DNA of 31,654 bases from Candidatus Bathyarchaeia archaeon. GTDB lineage: Archaea > Thermoproteota > Bathyarchaeia > TCS64. Positions 9,573 to 25,000 of the stretch are shown here, piece by piece. The notes under the pieces were generated by a model, which was not told the origin of the DNA, ran no database searches, and worked only from the letters and a program-made list of their open reading frames with translations. The position numbers and the translations under genes were made by a program. The stretch covers positions 1 to 31,654 of the forward strand of contig JBEKDF010000035.1 in NCBI GenBank assembly GCA_050014495.1, in the 5' to 3' direction. Position 1 is the first letter of the stretch. Every line of letters begins with the position of its first letter.

Positions 9573-9809
9573 TTTCTATTTTTTATAATATTCGTACGTT
9601 AAAGATCGTATTATAAATAATTACTCGTATCATCTCAAAATTATCAAACGTTATTTGATATTACGGGATAATAAATCTAGGAAATGACTATAAAACAATC
9701 GTTTTTTTCAATTATTAACTAGTCTCAAATAAAGGCAATATGATATAGATAACTGCGATAACTGTTATAAGCCCAATAATATAAGGTGTAATACGAGTTG
9801 TGAGGATCT
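9573..9809. promoter_or_regulatory. AT-rich intergenic control region with short palindromic and direct repeats
   Basis: About 26% GC by hand count. T-run after the gatE stop, TATCAAA-N5-TTTGATA at 9642-9660, GATAACTG twice (9748, 9757), TATA-like TTATAA at 9765 and GAGG before ATG 9810. Confidence 0.6.
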
Positions 9810-10253
9810 ATGAGCCGTCCCTCTTTCCATCTCAAAGTCAAAATCGGGGAGATGGAGGTGGAGCTGGGTGGAGATAAGGCTGAGGTCCTCAGCGCTCTAG
9901 ACGAACTCCCCACAATAGTTGAGAAAGTCTCAAACAGTTTCCAAGGGGAGTCTTCTGGCCACAGGCCCCGCTCCAAGAAGCAAACGGATAATGGTGCCTC
10001 AGAGGTGTTGCCGCAGATACCTAGGACCACACAGTGCAGCGAGGCCGTCACCGCTCTCCTTGCAGAACCTTGGGGGAAGACGCCACGTACAATCTCTGAG
10101 CTTAGGGAGGCCATGGAGGCTAACGCCGTATTCTTCCCTAAGACAACCTTATCTGGGGTCTTAGTTTGGATGGTGAAGAAAGGGACAATCAGAAGATGGA
10201 AAGATAAGAAGAGAGGATACCTCTATACCATGAATTCGCCGGAGCCTGAGTAA
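9810..10253 (+). CDS. Hypothetical protein: N-terminal beta-hairpin/helix domain, linker, C-terminal winged helix
   Basis: FHLKVKIGEMEVELGGDKAEV, a low-complexity linker, then PRTISELREAM...TTLSGVLVWMVKKGTIRR...GYLY (wHTH pattern). RBS-like GAGG upstream. Confidence 0.8.
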   Translation: MSRPSFHLKVKIGEMEVELGGDKAEVLSALDELPTIVEKVSNSFQGESSGHRPRSKKQTDNGASEVLPQIPRTTQCSEAVTALLAEPWGKTPRTISELREAMEANAVFFPKTTLSGVLVWMVKKGTIRRWKDKKRGYLYTMNSPEPE

Positions 10254-10254
10254 G

Positions 10255-10737
10255 TTGCCTAAGATAACCCTGACTGTGAAGACCCAGTTTGGAGATATCC
10301 AAGTTTCGGGGGAGACTCCCGAGGAGCTTCTAAGAGGCCTCGAATGGCTCACCCAGGAGTACGTGGCGCAGCTCAATGAGAAGGTCTCTGGAGTTGTCTC
10401 AAAGCAGGCCCTTGACCACCTAAAGGAAATCGTGGAGATGAGGCGGGACGGTCCAATCCTCGTCTGCAAGGAGGAGATAAGCCACTATGAGATGATTGGG
10501 CTCCTACTCTACGCGATGAAGGGATATCAGGCGACGGGGAGGGAGTTGAAGGAATGCCTAAACGAGAGCGGGCGTAAGGTAATCGTGCCTGCTAGGCTCC
10601 ACGAGATGGTTAAGAAGGGTTTCTTGTTCCGCCCAGAGGGGCGAGGGAGTATATATAAGATGACTGCGAAGGGCGTCAACTGGGTGGAGAAGGAAGTTCT
10701 CCCGCCGATTCGGGAGAAGCAGGCTGCACTGGCTTAG
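10255..10737 (+). CDS. Hypothetical protein, same architecture as 9810-10253
   Basis: ITLTVKTQFGDIQVSGETPEEL, then ATGRELKECL...VPARLHEMVKKGFLFR...IYKMTAKG (wHTH). TTG start 1 nt after the upstream stop. Confidence 0.8.
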   Translation: MPKITLTVKTQFGDIQVSGETPEELLRGLEWLTQEYVAQLNEKVSGVVSKQALDHLKEIVEMRRDGPILVCKEEISHYEMIGLLLYAMKGYQATGRELKECLNESGRKVIVPARLHEMVKKGFLFRPEGRGSIYKMTAKGVNWVEKEVLPPIREKQAALA

Positions 10738-11077
10738 GGTGCTCCCTCTCGTAGTCCTCGTACATATCGGAGACGGTGACGAGTAGGCTCATAACAATCT
10801 GTTTAGCGTCACATGTATAGCCGCTGTCTTTGAAAGGACTGCGTTGAATGAGGTTCTTCTCTAGAAGCTTCGAAACCGCCCTCTCTGTTGCCTTCAGTGT
10901 GAGGTTCAGCTCGGTTGAGATCTCCTTGACCGACAATGTTCTAGCTGTGCTAAGGAGGTGGAAGACTATCTGGAACTGGCTAGGTGCCTTTCGTAGCTTG
11001 AGAAGCGTGTCCGTCCTGTCCCTTAGCTCGGCAAGCTGCTTCTCTGACATCTTTTCCCAGGAGCCACTTTCTTCCAT
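10676..11077 (-). CDS. Small winged-helix protein (array member 5)
   Basis: SQFQIVFHLL...LSVKEISTELNLTLKATERAVSKLLEKNLIQR...GY. True start may be ATG 11050. Confidence 0.8.
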   Translation of the reverse strand: MEESGSWEKMSEKQLAELRDRTDTLLKLRKAPSQFQIVFHLLSTARTLSVKEISTELNLTLKATERAVSKLLEKNLIQRSPFKDSGYTCDAKQIVMSLLVTVSDMYEDYEREHPKPVQPASPESAGELPSPPS

Positions 11078-11130
11078 GCCCTTTTAAATGATACCTATCC
11101 GAGTGGACCAGGGAGGTGGCTGAAAGTGGC

Positions 11131-11388
11131 CTACTTACGCCCCATATCCCTGTAGAGCTTCATAATAAAGTCGTAAGGAGTAATAACTGCAATGTAGCCC
11201 TCGGGGCGTACTTCAACGAGACCCTGCTTCTTAAGCTCCGCTAAGCGTGCTCGAACAGTGGATCCATTCTCCTTTAATGCCACTGCGATCTCCAGAGGCT
11301 TCAACACACTCCCCCTGAAGGCGAGATAGCACAAGATCTTATATGCAGATGTGTCAGGCTCAAGCTGATCAAGCTTCTCAGCGCTCAT
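11131..11388 (-). CDS. Small winged-helix protein (array member 4)
   Basis: YKILCYLAFRG...KPLEIAVALKENGSTVRARLAELKKQGLV...GY. ATGA overlap with the upstream gene. Confidence 0.85.
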   Translation of the reverse strand: MSAEKLDQLEPDTSAYKILCYLAFRGSVLKPLEIAVALKENGSTVRARLAELKKQGLVEVRPEGYIAVITPYDFIMKLYRDMGRK

Positions 11389-11651
11389 TTGCTGAAATAC
11401 TCCTTAAGTAGCGTGACTAAAATGGGGCCGAGCTTATAGCGGTAGACGCCACGGCTAACTGGGTCGACGAGTCCCTTATTCTTGAGGTTGAATAGAGCGA
11501 TGTTTACAGCGTTGACTGTGAGATTGAGCTGCTCCGCGATCTTCTGACTAGACATAGCCTCGCCATTCTCGACGAGGCACAAAAGCACCTGCTGCTGGCT
11601 CTCAGCCCGCCTCAGGCCCTCTAGCTCGTCGGCGCCAACCAATCTGGTCAC
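11385..11651 (-). CDS. Small winged-helix protein (array member 3)
   Basis: MSSQKIAEQLNLTVNAVNIALFNLKNKGLVDPVSRGVY. GTGA overlap with the upstream gene. Confidence 0.85.
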   Translation of the reverse strand: MTRLVGADELEGLRRAESQQQVLLCLVENGEAMSSQKIAEQLNLTVNAVNIALFNLKNKGLVDPVSRGVYRYKLGPILVTLLKEYFSK

Positions 11652-11905
11652 TTCTTCGCGAAGATATATGAGACGAAGTCTGTGAAGGGAATAACGCTCC
11701 TATAAGTGCCATCATCCTGTTGCTTCACGTAACCCTTGTCGAGGAGGCTACGGAGTGCTGGACGCACCGTCCCCGGGGCTATGCTCGTCTCCTCACTGAT
11801 GGCACCAGGTAGGCTCACACCCCTGAAAGCGAGGTAGGTAAGGACTTTGAACTGCGCCGTATCTGGCTTGAGTTCCTGAATCACCTTATCGATAAGATCA
11901 GTCAA
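11648..11905 (-). CDS. Small winged-helix protein (array member 2)
   Basis: FKVLTYLAFRG...PGAISEETSIAPGTVRPALRSLLDKGYV...GTY. TTG start 1 nt after the upstream stop. Confidence 0.85.
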   Translation of the reverse strand: MTDLIDKVIQELKPDTAQFKVLTYLAFRGVSLPGAISEETSIAPGTVRPALRSLLDKGYVKQQDDGTYRSVIPFTDFVSYIFAKK

Positions 11906-11906
11906 T

Positions 11907-12152
11907 CTATTTCGCCTTCTGCTCTAATGCCTCAATCCTATCTATGAGATGGATCACGATCCCCGCGTAGTTGGGTTCATAGTTGCCACGCCCGCTTCTC
12001 TGTAGAAGACCATCTCTCGCGAGCTTCGCGAAAGCATCCTTGACAGAATTGTACTTTGCGTCGAGCTTAGCCGCCATCTGCTCAGGACCGAGTGTCGGGT
12101 CCTGGAGGAAGCTGCGGAAAACCCTGTCCTTTAGACTCAATTCCTCGGACAT
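11907..12152 (-). CDS. Small winged-helix protein (array member 1)
   Basis: LGPEQMAAKLDAKYNSVKDAFAKLARDGLLQRSGRGNY followed by a short amphipathic/coiled helix (LIDRIEALEQK). Confidence 0.85.
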   Translation of the reverse strand: MSEELSLKDRVFRSFLQDPTLGPEQMAAKLDAKYNSVKDAFAKLARDGLLQRSGRGNYEPNYAGIVIHLIDRIEALEQKAK

Positions 12153-12322
12153 TTAGTTAAAACAAGCGTGTAGTTCTTATTAACTTTGTTTTTGACCCAG
12201 TGACATCGGATTGCTCATGGTGTGATTATCTTGAGCGTTATTATTTCTCCCTTTATATATAGAATGGCATTTAAACCAAATTACGCTCTTTATATTCGAT
12301 CACTTTATATGTCTAGGAAAAA
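12153..12322. promoter_or_regulatory. Divergent promoter region shared by the wHTH array and nurA-herA
   Basis: Minus-strand TTAATAAG at 12176-12183, about 25-30 nt before ATG 12152. CTTTATAT occurs three times (12251, 12288, 12303). Inverted repeat AAAACAA/TTGTTTT at 12159/12186. Confidence 0.6.
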
Positions 12323-13420
12323 ATGTGTTGTGCAGAGATTATTCTGGGGGCTATTGATCGAGTGCTGAGTCTTGAGGAGCGAGCAGGCATCATCGAGGAT
12401 GCTAGAAGGCAGGGTGAGAACCTTAGCCTCTCCATAAGGGACCTTCTATTGAGCGAGATTTCCAGTGATGTAACAACAGAGCAGCCAGCTGTGGCAGGAC
12501 TCGCTACGAAGATCAGGGAGGAGATGAGCCTCTTTCCCATGACAAAGCACGAAGCTTTCAAGAGGGTCGCTGGTGTGGACGCTGGGAGTCAGATACTGCC
12601 ACTCGCTTCGAAGAGATATGGAGTTGTCAGCGCACTCGTCTATGGGCTTCCGGGATGCACAAAATTTTGGATGCACCCCGAGTCTATGTCGCTCCCATAC
12701 GGGATCGCCGGGAACAGGTTTGAGGGGATGGTAAATGCGAGGAGGGAAGCGAAGCTCTATGAGACCGCCGCAGTATACCTTAAGACACACCCGGAAACCG
12801 AGCTAATGCTCGTCGATGGTCCTCTCGCCTTCAGCGATTGGTGGATGATGGTGGGGTGTCACAAAGATCAGAAGAGGCTCCTCGAAGCGATCAACAACCT
12901 CCTTCACCTCAGCAGGGAAACTGGAGTAATACTGGCGGGCGTGGTGAAGAGACCGAACGCTAGATATCTCATTTACTACCTCGGCTTACAAGGTGAGACT
13001 CAGTTACCAGACAGCTTTGTTCTTCTGCATGCTTTGAAGCCTGGGGAGAGGACCGATATATTCTCGCCCAAGGCAGCACTGACGCAGGCGAGCAGAGCCG
13101 CCAATTTCATGGGCTCCCTAGATGTTCCCATCTATAGCTTCTATGGGAGGATGACTAAAGAATGGAGCTTTCCACCCATAAGGGTGGACCTCCCAGCCCA
13201 CAGCCTAGGGGGACTCGACGATGTCGCCGACTATTGTTATGGGACTGCGCTCAACGACGGGATACCCCTTCCCATTGTTAAAGCGGATGAGGGAGTCAAG
13301 ATTACCCGCCGTTTCATGGCTGAGATTTACGGGGAGATATTAAGCAAGGTCAGCAGGCGCACCGGAGAGGTCCGGGGGCTCGCGCCGTACTGGGGTGAGG
13401 GCAGATGGATGGGGGCTTGA
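12323..13420 (+). CDS. nurA: NurA-family nuclease (divergent, stand-alone type)
   Basis: VAGVDAGS (AVDGS-like), LMLVDGPL, LAGVVKRP, IRVDL and GIPLPIVKADEGVKIT (GYP-x-L-x2-A[HD]-x2-VxI-like). Overlaps herA. Confidence 0.82.
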   Translation: MCCAEIILGAIDRVLSLEERAGIIEDARRQGENLSLSIRDLLLSEISSDVTTEQPAVAGLATKIREEMSLFPMTKHEAFKRVAGVDAGSQILPLASKRYGVVSALVYGLPGCTKFWMHPESMSLPYGIAGNRFEGMVNARREAKLYETAAVYLKTHPETELMLVDGPLAFSDWWMMVGCHKDQKRLLEAINNLLHLSRETGVILAGVVKRPNARYLIYYLGLQGETQLPDSFVLLHALKPGERTDIFSPKAALTQASRAANFMGSLDVPIYSFYGRMTKEWSFPPIRVDLPAHSLGGLDDVADYCYGTALNDGIPLPIVKADEGVKITRRFMAEIYGEILSKVSRRTGEVRGLAPYWGEGRWMGA

Positions 13421-14919
13421 AGGTAGGACACACCTACAGCCTGACAGGCGAATATAGCGTCGATCAGATCACTGTACTACTCATGCGGGGGCGTGAGCTG
13501 GCGAAGGGCGACCTCGTATACGTAAAACACCCAAAGAATGGGTCACCAGTCGTCTACCAAGTAGTTAAAGTCTATCCCCATAAGAGGGTCCGCGAGTACG
13601 AAGAGGCTCTCCTAACTGAAGGGCGTGTGATTGATGATGCTGAAGATTCGAGCCTCCATGCGGAAGCGTACCAATGGGGCTGGATGGACGGCGAGGGCAG
13701 CCTCAGGCCACTCCGATATCCCCTAACACCCAATACCCAAGTCTTTGCAGCGGAGCGCGACCTCGTCGCAAAGTTCACTAAGCCTAACGGTGAGTGGAAG
13801 TTTCTACTCGGCACCGACCCGACTACAGACCTCGATGTTGAACTCGGCTTATACCCGTTGATCAGGCAGAGCTGCCTAATTTGTGGCGCAGTTGGGACGG
13901 GGAAGACGACGACTGCTATAAGCATGGTAGCCCGTGCAGCCTGTGCGAATCCCCCCGTCCGATTCTTCATCGTAGATAAGGACGGAGAGTACAGTAGCCT
14001 CACCGATCATCTAGGGGTAGGGGCAGTCCTCAAGGTGCCATGGAACAGCTTTTTCCAACCGGGGGACGTACCTTGGGACGACTACGTCGCTGAGTTCGGG
14101 TGGCAGAAGACTTGGTGGAACGCCAAGATACTCGTACAAGCCTTGAAGACTCTCTATGCTCAGACCGCGATAGTTACGAAAACGAATCTACGTCGAGCCG
14201 TTGCAATGGTTAACCCCGAAAATCTCGGTTTCAACAAGAAGATAGACGAGTGGGAGCTATACCGTGCCCAGGTTGAGAACGCGATAAACATGAGTCGCCT
14301 CATCCCCGATGGTGAGGCCACTGTCCTCGACCCCGTCCAGCTCCTAAAGGAGAGAAAGATAATCATCATGGACCTCAGCGACGGGAAGGACACTTGGGAA
14401 CAGAAGCATCTAGTGGTGGCTCAGGTTCTCCGACGCATCTTCGGTGAGGCCCTCGAGAATAGAAAGTTTGGCTGCATTGTATTGCTTGAGGAGGCTATGT
14501 ACTATGCACCGCAGCACGGTGTCTTCGAGATAGGAGAGAAGGAAAGCCGGGGCAAGCTGCTTGGTGTCATCAAGGAGATCGCGACGAATGGGGGGCGGAA
14601 CGGTGTTGGCCTCTGGGTGGTAACTCAGCGCCTTGCCACCGTGGAGAAAACTGTTGTCACCCAGTGCGCCAATAATATAATATGTCATGGATTAGAGGAC
14701 CTCGACAAGCAGCGCCTCGCTGAGATAATGGGAGACGAGTTTACCCAGCTTATAGGCGATCTACCCCCTGGTGAGGCAATAGTCAAGGGGACCACACTGA
14801 AATGCAGGTTTCCCATCTGGGTCAAGGTACTCCCCGAAGTCTACCCCGCCTCAAGTCTTAGTACACCGATGAGCAGATTCATTCACATGGCTCACACCGA
14901 AGCGGTATCTTCCCCTTAA
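13405..14919 (+). CDS. herA: HerA/FtsK-superfamily ATPase with N-terminal HAS-barrel-like region
   Basis: Walker A GAVGTGKTT, VDKDGEY, IIIMDLS, Walker B VLLEEA, GVGLWVVTQR and LPPGEAIV. N-terminus GDLVYV...VYQV...YPLTPNTQV fits a HAS barrel. Confidence 0.88.
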   Translation: MDGGLKVGHTYSLTGEYSVDQITVLLMRGRELAKGDLVYVKHPKNGSPVVYQVVKVYPHKRVREYEEALLTEGRVIDDAEDSSLHAEAYQWGWMDGEGSLRPLRYPLTPNTQVFAAERDLVAKFTKPNGEWKFLLGTDPTTDLDVELGLYPLIRQSCLICGAVGTGKTTTAISMVARAACANPPVRFFIVDKDGEYSSLTDHLGVGAVLKVPWNSFFQPGDVPWDDYVAEFGWQKTWWNAKILVQALKTLYAQTAIVTKTNLRRAVAMVNPENLGFNKKIDEWELYRAQVENAINMSRLIPDGEATVLDPVQLLKERKIIIMDLSDGKDTWEQKHLVVAQVLRRIFGEALENRKFGCIVLLEEAMYYAPQHGVFEIGEKESRGKLLGVIKEIATNGGRNGVGLWVVTQRLATVEKTVVTQCANNIICHGLEDLDKQRLAEIMGDEFTQLIGDLPPGEAIVKGTTLKCRFPIWVKVLPEVYPASSLSTPMSRFIHMAHTEAVSSP

Positions 14920-14999: not shown

Positions 15000-15448
15000 A
15001 TGGTGTTATTCTTGAGTCCTGATCGCCTTTACCCCGAGCGCCCAATGATTGGTGTCGGCGTACTGATCCGTAAAGGTGAGGAGTATCTCTTGATCAAACG
15101 TGCTTCCGAACCCGATAAGGGTCTATGGTCCGTTTCAGGAGGCGTTATGGAGATAGGGGAAAAGACCACTGAAGCTGCCATACGGGAGACAAAAGAGGAA
15201 ACTGGACTTGACATCGAGATACTAAAGGACCTCGGAGTCGTCGACAAGATAGTTAGGGACGAAACAGGGAGGGTAAAGTACCACTTCGTAATTATCGATT
15301 ACCTCGCTGAACCGGTTTCCGGCAAGATGCACCACCACGATGACGCTCTCGATGCTCGCTGGATCCACCGAGGGACTTTACCGACTATGAGATGTCCCCA
15401 ACCCTCGTCGACCTCCTAAAGAAGATCGATCTAAACCCTGAGTTCTGA
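15000..15448 (+). pseudogene. Nudix hydrolase (ADP-ribose pyrophosphatase-like) with a frameshift near 15369 (or a sequencing error)
   Basis: Intact Nudix box GGVMEIGEKTTEAAIRETKEETGL plus YHFVIIDY. After ARWIH the family-like tail RDFTDYEMSPTLVDLLKKIDLNPEF continues in another frame (15371-15448). The in-frame ORF stops at 15419. Confidence 0.7.
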
Positions 15449-24233: not shown

Positions 24234-24455
24234 ATGAGCAGTGAACTCGAGAAGAGCCCCCTCTGGAGCGTACTCGTCGAAACTGTGCATAGACTGCCCC
24301 TATACAGGAGTCATAGATCCTATGTAAAGGAAACCATACTCCCCAAGAAACCTAGTGTCACGCCGGAGGAATTATCGGAAAGGATCGGCATGCCACTTGG
24401 CGAGTCAATTGTGATACTAGACGAGCTAAAAGTCGAAAAACCAGAGACCGATTAG
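24234..24455 (+). CDS. Small hypothetical protein with an HTH-like C-terminal half
   Basis: Starts 6 nt after the upstream stop and contains VTPEELSERIGMPLGESIVILDEL. Confidence 0.7.
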   Translation: MSSELEKSPLWSVLVETVHRLPLYRSHRSYVKETILPKKPSVTPEELSERIGMPLGESIVILDELKVEKPETD

Positions 24456-25000
24456 ACGACGTACCTGTACGAGATCGCGGTTCCAGCGGTCTCACTCTTC
24501 TGAGTTATCTTGAGGACATCTCCCCTCTTAGCTCCAAGTATTATGGCAATGGGGTCATTGACCTTTATCCAGGGGAACTGAAAGGGTTCCGCGTGATACT
24601 TCTTCGTGACTTCCTTCAGCTCTACCTCAGAGACTATCTCATGGCGGGGAACTAGGGCATGTTCGAAAATGTCGAAGGTAGGAAGCGTTGGCGGGATAAG
24701 CTCAATTCCGAGCTCCTCAGCGCTGCTCCGTGCCGAGTAAGTGTATTTTCCATCTCCGGCTAGGATACCCTTAGAGGCTCCCTCCTTCTCCACCATTTCC
24801 TTGAGTTCCCTCACGTAGCTGATACCAATCGTCTTCTGCCCGAGGACTGCGTGCATAATCATGAGCTGATTCTTTGAGTCACGTAACCGATAAATGAGCT
24901 TGTCCTCCTCACTGACAGGCTTCGCTGTATCTGTTGTTAGGTTCCTATACTTGATGATGAGGTTCGCCCGTTTTTCCTCTAGGGAAAGGTTCTTGCTCAT
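24452..25000 (-). CDS. rpoH: DNA-directed RNA polymerase subunit Rpo5/H with an N-terminal extension (RPB5-like)
   Basis: The C-terminal ~75 aa is canonical: HALVPRHEI, FPWIKVNDP, GAKRGDVLKI and SETAG...YRYVV. It is preceded by about 105 extra residues. Confidence 0.93.
   Translation of the reverse strand: MSKNLSLEEKRANLIIKYRNLTTDTAKPVSEEDKLIYRLRDSKNQLMIMHAVLGQKTIGISYVRELKEMVEKEGASKGILAGDGKYTYSARSSAEELGIELIPPTLPTFDIFEHALVPRHEIVSEVELKEVTKKYHAEPFQFPWIKVNDPIAIILGAKRGDVLKITQKSETAGTAISYRYVV

Follow-up and report, generated by a model that had tools for sequence, protein, structure and literature searches.

A NurA–HerA pair flanked by seven winged-helix genes in Bathyarchaeia: a candidate self-regulated module for DNA-end processing

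The known HerA–NurA complex is a 6:2 assembly that degrades double-stranded DNA in an ATP-dependent manner. The canonical pair belongs to the herA-mre11-rad50-nurA operon and is represented by S. solfataricus (2YGK, 4D2I) and T. kodakarensis (9X1L-N) entries. HerA motors also work with other nucleases or effectors, as in TdpAB (8wfd) and the bacterial defence systems Sir2–HerA and HerA–DUF4297. The in vivo role of archaeal HerA–NurA is debated: simple end resection is disputed by a 2026 study (PMC12977600). This paper concerns a block of nine genes in the window, meaning the whole stretch of 31,654 nucleotides that was analysed (contig JBEKDF010000035.1 of assembly GCA_050014495.1, Candidatus Bathyarchaeia archaeon, lineage TCS64; source genome G000). 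The block contains nurA and herA, two two-domain winged helix-turn-helix (wHTH) genes called A and B, and five small wHTH genes called W1 to W5. A sequence-only reading had proposed an undescribed system here, and all nine genes were recovered where it had placed them.

We judge the chances about even that the block is a transcriptionally self-regulated DNA-end-processing module, in which NurA–HerA would be switched by W1–W5 at a 56-bp site. Bathyarchaeia are among the most abundant sediment archaea, and the order in question is uncultured. The block allows one to ask whether NurA–HerA works without Mre11–Rad50. Its conserved partner or regulator genes, its candidate operator and its mutually exclusive motor paralogs open NurA–HerA control to direct tests.

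Conservation and composition of the block

The counts rest on two samples. The locus sample comprises the best 80 of 88 related loci in the genome collection, mostly titled Bathyarchaeia; one with a partial herA (L076) was dropped, 26 with less than 4.5 kb upstream were left out, and 53 were scored. The class sample holds 251 genomes, 66 of them others of the same order and 184 outside it. HerA of the block's type, here called alpha, occurs in 65 of the 66 other order genomes, at one locus each, and in four of the 184 outside the order, one of the four being a distant sister type. W1 is present in 63 of the 66 and in none of the 184. Linkage of the wHTH genes to nurA–herA recurs, as the sequence-only reading had supposed: all five W genes stand beside the alpha pair in 47 of the 53 loci (44 with A, B and the five W genes, two with A and the five, one with the five only). 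The rest are five distant loci with A/B-family genes and no W gene, and one locus broken by scaffold gaps; with that locus counted among the 53, partial sets of one to four W genes were not seen. An apparent counter-example (L018 in G113), with nurA fused to a peptidase and W1–W2 missing, was set aside as a scaffolding artefact, since both of its breakpoints coincide with runs of N.

The block holds a fixed, single-copy, chromosomal position between gatE and a Nudix gene, and its GC content is like that of its flanks; gatD–gatE, the Nudix gene and pyrB are its conserved neighbours. Across 29 complete loci, median identity to the window is 77% for HerA, 72% for W3, 64% for GatE, 62% for A, 60% for W1, 59% for W4, 58% for W2, 57% for NurA, 55% for W5 and 50% for B, so that HerA alpha is more conserved than GatE. 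Judged by this distribution and identity pattern, the block is a core locus. A Pfam scan of the 35 distinct window proteins returned no mre11, rad50, integrase or transposase family, in line with what had been read from the letters. The contamination estimate of the source genome is 7.5%.

NurA (12323..13420, plus strand; PF09376, 39.4 bits against a cut-off of 21) and HerA (13405..14919, plus strand; PF01935, 35 against 23.2) are encoded by genes that overlap by 16 nt, and the Nudix gene comes next. The aspartates of NurA motifs I and II, D86 and D165, are invariant in 34 sequences. A PDB sequence-profile search found no NurA; fold search alone recovered it. The top Foldseek matches of the NurA model are solved structures of the RNase H-like NurA fold (S. 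solfataricus 2ygk, E 8e-14), and chain G of TdpAB 8wfd is matched as well (E 4e-10). In HerA alpha, Walker A (GAVGTGKTT), Walker B (LEEAMYY) and the TQR motif are invariant or nearly so, and the P-loop core is shared with 4d2i (E 1e-11). The bit score to 4d2i is 47, against 128 for a repair-operon HerA of G000 (at C2), in a comparison of profile with single-sequence searches. NCBIfam models of repair HerA give 34–36 against cut-offs of 800–970. What is known of the two families predicts that in the alpha pair an ATP-driven motor feeds DNA to an active end nuclease.

The five W genes form a row on the minus strand, divergent from nurA–herA. W1 (11907..12152) is the first gene and is order-specific. 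W2 (11648..11905) has weak TrmB and IclR matches, and W4 (11131..11388) is its paralog at 37% identity. W3 (11385..11651) is the most conserved of the five. W5 (10676..11077), a small wHTH with a C-terminal helix, has HTH_24 and MarR matches; its conserved start or core lies at about 11050, and its tail overlaps the end of B. Four-nucleotide overlaps join W2 to W3 and W3 to W4. In the Pfam scan W3 and W5 pass the HTH_24 cut-off, W2 and W4 have weak HTH matches and W1 has none. Comparison by hhalign gives 97.9% for W3 with W2 and 96% for W3 with W1. NCBIfam Lrs14 and Sta1 models match W3 and W5 at 24–26 bits, short of cut-offs of 80–90. An obligate five-member wHTH regulator would be unusual for archaea.

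Elsewhere in the window, an Rpb5 open reading frame (24452-25000) bears an N-terminal Mrr-like region. The long Rpb5 form with such a region is presumably the eukaryote-like one.

The spacer between W1 and nurA

Three elements lie in the spacer between the divergent gene rows. A BRE/TATA-like box (12176..12195, minus strand), which is a conserved block in 45 dereplicated spacers, is the likely W1–W5 promoter. A TATA-like box (12304..12311, plus strand) is the likely nurA–herA promoter. Between them is the 56-bp site (12233..12288, no strand assigned), a likely operator whose inverted arms are asymmetric and enclose an AT-rich centre; its pattern is GAGC-N6-MTTT-N7-TATA-N20-AAAT-N3-GCTC. By this pattern, which was derived from members of the same order in which copies were counted, a single copy is present in 55 of 59 order genomes, and the reversed-pattern control gave 0. 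Under the strict pattern the site is exactly 56 bp in 40 of the 45 dereplicated spacers (62 before dereplication). Its spacing is also nearly constant: 14–16 nt to the nurA TATA-like box in all 43 measured cases (15 nt in 35), and 52–54 nt to the W1-facing box in 33 of 38. The site is absent upstream of nurA in distant alpha loci without W genes (L062, L063, L083–L087, L092). In G006 (L081), where A–B have been parted from the rest, W1–W5, nurA–herA and a variant of the site stay together.

The spacer had been put at 170 nt, which holds for a nurA start at ATG 12323. That ATG lies only 19 nt past the start of the TATA-like box and is not conserved in relatives. For these two reasons translation more likely begins at the in-frame GTG, position 12362, and the spacer would then measure about 209 nt.

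A conserved site lying between divergent promoters speaks for control at the level of transcription rather than for a coating of the DNA. Among the roles earlier suggested for the wHTH proteins, regulation is accordingly the favoured one and coating the less fitting. W1–W5 would be co-translated and would function as one mixed complex, a proposal suggested by their all-or-none retention and by the length and asymmetry of the site. The complex would bind the single site and regulate both nurA–herA and its own operon. The output would be conditional processing or destruction of DNA ends, at broken chromosomes or stalled forks, apart from the Mre11–Rad50 operons.

Other explanations of the site were tried and rejected. 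For a hairpin, covariation between the arms is weak: positions 5/52 are complementary in 27 of 45 rows, two of which had been mis-picked by a loose pattern. An origin of replication was dropped because cdc6 is not adjacent. The best stretch in G000 after the site itself (C15:22078) lies in the intergenic space that separates a small gene from a HAD-like one, and carries the inner part without the outer arms.

A and B genes and other NurA–HerA pairs

In A (9810..10253, plus strand) a hairpin-helix part at the N-terminus precedes a C-terminal BlaI-like wHTH; the paralog B (10255..10737, plus strand) runs from a beta-hairpin through helices and a second hairpin to a wHTH. One nucleotide separates the two genes. 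Before A lies the AT-rich control region already recognized in the sequence-only reading (9573..9809, no strand assigned), with 26% GC over 237 nt; it holds the likely A–B promoter. TATA-like and GTGAT-like short motifs upstream of A recur in relatives; the length of the region varies among them. By hhalign A and B match at 96.7%. A profile search of the PDB matched A to BlaI (1p6r, E 0.0035), and the Pfam scan gave one HTH match below cut-off for A and none for B. The structure model of B (pLDDT, predicted local distance difference test, 86) displays the C-terminal wHTH. In a search with this model, residues 70–160 match PadR/MarR-type wHTHs at Z of about 9–11, AspA being among them at Z 9.7, tied with many others; among the matches listed for B, none spans the N-terminal part of A/B. 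Profile comparison of W2 with the B family reaches only 39%, so A/B and W1–W5 are two separate paralog sets. The view of seven wHTH genes as one system gives way to two separable sets, which are parted in G006.

The B family is found in 219 of the 251 class genomes and in 121 of 301 genomes of the phylum, being absent from several large families. Sets of two to four A/B paralogs persist, and B had no match in phage records. Several lineages carry, amid their A/B genes, a recurring protein of 230–245 amino acids that reaches the cut-off of no Pfam family (L128:7646-8380, L137:8256-8993, L244:8275-8970; also L245, L246, L247, L252, L253, L169, L180); no homolog was found in G000.

The pair had been described as an orphan, and the sequence-only reading had named two findings as evidence against its proposal: wHTH genes unlinked to nurA–herA in related genomes, or a sole nurA–herA that branches with canonical repair orthologs. 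Neither was obtained. Besides the block, G000 holds two nurA-herA-mre11-rad50 operons, one at C2 among housekeeping genes and one at C9. The C9 operon (L088, G000:C9:1237-10600) is island-like and adjoins an OLD-family ATPase-TOPRIM gene and a WYL-domain gene. At least one further HerA-family gene was present in all ten other order genomes tested. A query with the C2-type mre11 found matches in 38 of 59 order genomes, with strong ones (E below 1e-50) in 27, so these operons vary while the alpha block does not. That some order genomes lack mre11 was suggested by the 21 misses with this one query and was discarded, as all five that were rechecked have another herA–mre11 type. The idea that alpha is the only pair in some genomes was also abandoned. 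PF09376, by which divergent NurAs score weakly, found one NurA in G113, G158 and G006, and the check for a second HerA-family gene, which covered G158 and G006, found one in both. The orphan label fits inside the order, where mre11 or rad50 was flagged in none of 47 W-bearing loci. It fails for distant Bathyarchaeia alpha pairs, with mre11 directly after the pair in L085 and within about 6 kb in L062, L083 and L084.

A distant NurA–HerA paralog, called beta, occurs in 145 of the 251 class genomes with P-loop and NurA motifs intact. It was found in no family that has alpha and never in the same genome as alpha. A/B genes stand beside it in these genomes without alpha. Forty of the 145 beta loci were fetched after manual selection, which for the first 20 drew on genomes with their best B match at another place, and members from loci of this kind were added to the A/B profiles. 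On this footing an A/B gene lies directly beside nurA in 36 of the 40, two others being cut by contig ends and two lacking it. Of 20 manually chosen loci around B-family matches in genomes from beyond the class, 17 carry a beta pair or a pair of a third type, gamma. A/B genes are co-directional with nurA–herA in many loci, for example L163–L168. Some beta loci run on into mre11-rad50 (L125, L130, L143, L163, L166, L167), and L170 reads B-B-B-A, beta pair, gamma pair, mre11, rad50. Gamma, the sister type of alpha, has a patchy distribution and occurs in 16 of 80 non-order genomes. It is not the alpha ortholog: both occur in G003, and G001 has an alpha-like pair together with gamma. At three loci the gamma HerA open reading frames are unusually long, at about 830–1050 amino acids (L248:10133-13288, L252:1562-4156, L253:1842-4352), and possibly contain inteins or fusions. 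The Nudix gene of the window (15000-15419) has a second copy on C4 at 43% identity, and it adjoins alpha and many beta loci.

Two quick, unrooted trees, composed of uncharacterised sequences, place alpha apart from the mre11-rad50 operons of G000. In them it groups with gamma and unlinked pairs from other Thermoproteota, far from beta. Alpha and beta are about 21% identical, and a clade of these two alone was rejected (approximately unbiased test, p-AU 0.0018); a clade of alpha, its sisters, gamma and beta was not rejected (p 0.45), the branches involved being long. A/B genes stand beside both alpha and beta, which the trees place apart, so that a change of motor paralog left the A/B link in place. 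The change may have been replacement, or duplication and loss. A and B would be an older layer, of regulators or adaptors, that accompanies NurA–HerA paralogs across the phylum, and in this order alpha likely replaced a beta pair at this locus.

At the position corresponding to the 56-bp site, beta loci have a different conserved motif. In the spacer that parts nurA beta from a divergently oriented A-type gene, loci L141–L161, L169, L180 and L181 have ATTGT-type short repeats and a TGCA-rich stretch directly before the TATA-like box. A GC-rich inverted repeat, conserved in several families, apparently takes in both the nurA beta start codon and its ribosome-binding site, like a translational-control RNA hairpin (L164, L165, L168, L171, L172, L174, L176–L178; also L132).

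Competing readings and described systems

Several observations count against a self-regulated DNA-end-processing module. NurA motif I reads DA where the published consensus is DG. The motif III histidine is replaced by an invariant aspartate (D322), giving AD in place of AH; the consensus in the available part of a 2026 NurA review is LxxAH (PMC13748450). The same aspartate is found in the gamma, C2 and C9 NurAs, so the alpha NurA may still be active. A position weight matrix scan of G000 showed no second full site (next best 28.6 against 75.8 bits), and half-site matches lie mostly in coding DNA; the regulon idea was given up, and with it any regulon tying the site to DNA damage. Alpha-like sister pairs without a wHTH neighbour exist in five other genomes (L091, L116–L119). 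Seven of 20 loci around best B matches have no nurA–herA pair, and B-family genes often stay at gatE. The genomes are related, so the counts are not independent. Finally, a switch with one operator does not need five paralogs plus A and B, and this excess speaks for a structural or adaptor role.

Such a role is the strongest rival, and we rate it as unlikely though deserving of attention. On this view the wHTH proteins, above all A/B, would act physically as adaptors: they would coat DNA or mark it, and load the NurA–HerA motor or hold it back. The adjacency of A/B to nurA in beta loci and outside the class, their shared direction and their retention in sets are all as this predicts. A shared interface is harder to keep across motors as divergent as alpha and beta, which do not form a clade of their own, and the B genes at gatE lie away from any pair. 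A bolder synthesis, which we hold at a similarly modest level of belief, makes A/B an undescribed phylum-wide specificity layer surviving motor exchange among alpha, beta and gamma. Joined, in this order, to a heteropentameric wHTH complex reading the 56-bp site, it would constitute a sequence-directed, Mre11-independent translocase-nuclease for chromosome handling or foreign-DNA disposal.

Improbable, in our estimate, is a core innate-defence nuclease, by which NurA–HerA would destroy incoming linear foreign DNA under wHTH control or licence. T. kodakarensis HerA–NurA cuts both strands and is proposed to be antiviral in the available part of its report (PMC12977600), and the TdpAB match of the NurA model is compatible with this. 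A defence island, which is typically patchy, sits poorly with a locus that evolves slowly, keeps a single copy at a fixed position and is present in nearly the whole order. The C9 operon, which does look like an island, belongs to a different clade, PADLOC gave no match for NurA, and no relative of alpha HerA was found in viral contigs.

Rather doubtful, too, is an inherited neighbourhood without joint function, in which slow rearrangement has kept a spare repair pair beside unrelated regulators. The likewise conserved gatD–gatE, Nudix and pyrB neighbours and the parting of A–B in G006 are what it would lead one to expect. It has trouble with the A/B family adjoining three HerA subfamilies amid differing genes, within the class and beyond it, and with the joint movement of W1–W5, site and nurA–herA in G006. 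Least probable is a chromosome-handling system with the site as a wHTH-bound centromere-, origin- or terminus-like element and HerA pumping DNA in the manner of FtsK. In its favour are the strictly single site in each genome, whose inverted arms enclose an AT-rich core, AspA among the fold matches of B and a cell-division role of archaeal HerA raised in the available part of PMC12977600; operator-like fixed distances to two TATA-like boxes, cdc6/orc1 on other contigs in four of five genomes (about 86 kb off in G158) and the lack of a ParA-like gene in the block speak against it.

Full-text literature searching, which did not extend to subscription papers or to supplements where arCOG-type tables could list the families, found no description of this cluster. 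The available part of the NurA review (PMC13748450) does not mention wHTH satellites or a dedicated site. With TdpAB, Sir2–HerA and HerA–DUF4297 the alpha block shares a HerA motor joined to a nuclease or effector and the absence of Mre11–Rad50; it differs in having no Sir2, DUF4297 or modification gene and in being core, not patchy. With Lrs14/AbfR1, Sta1, Sso10a and AspA its proteins share a wHTH and C-terminal helix, with weak Lrs14 and Sta1 matches for W3 and W5; five co-retained paralogs and scores far below cut-off set them apart. Closest is the canonical HerA–NurA, with which alpha shares the NurA fold, the motif I and II aspartates, the HerA P-loop core and overlapping genes. Alpha differs from it in the motif III aspartate, the Walker B sequence EEAM, the wHTH satellites, the dedicated site, the absence of mre11-rad50 from the block and a HerA far more divergent from 4d2i than that of C2. 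On sequence criteria the block fails the cut-offs for anti-phage HerA (NCBIfam score 46 against 800) and for Lrs14, and it resembles HerA–NurA, yet by position it stands outside the four-gene repair operon.

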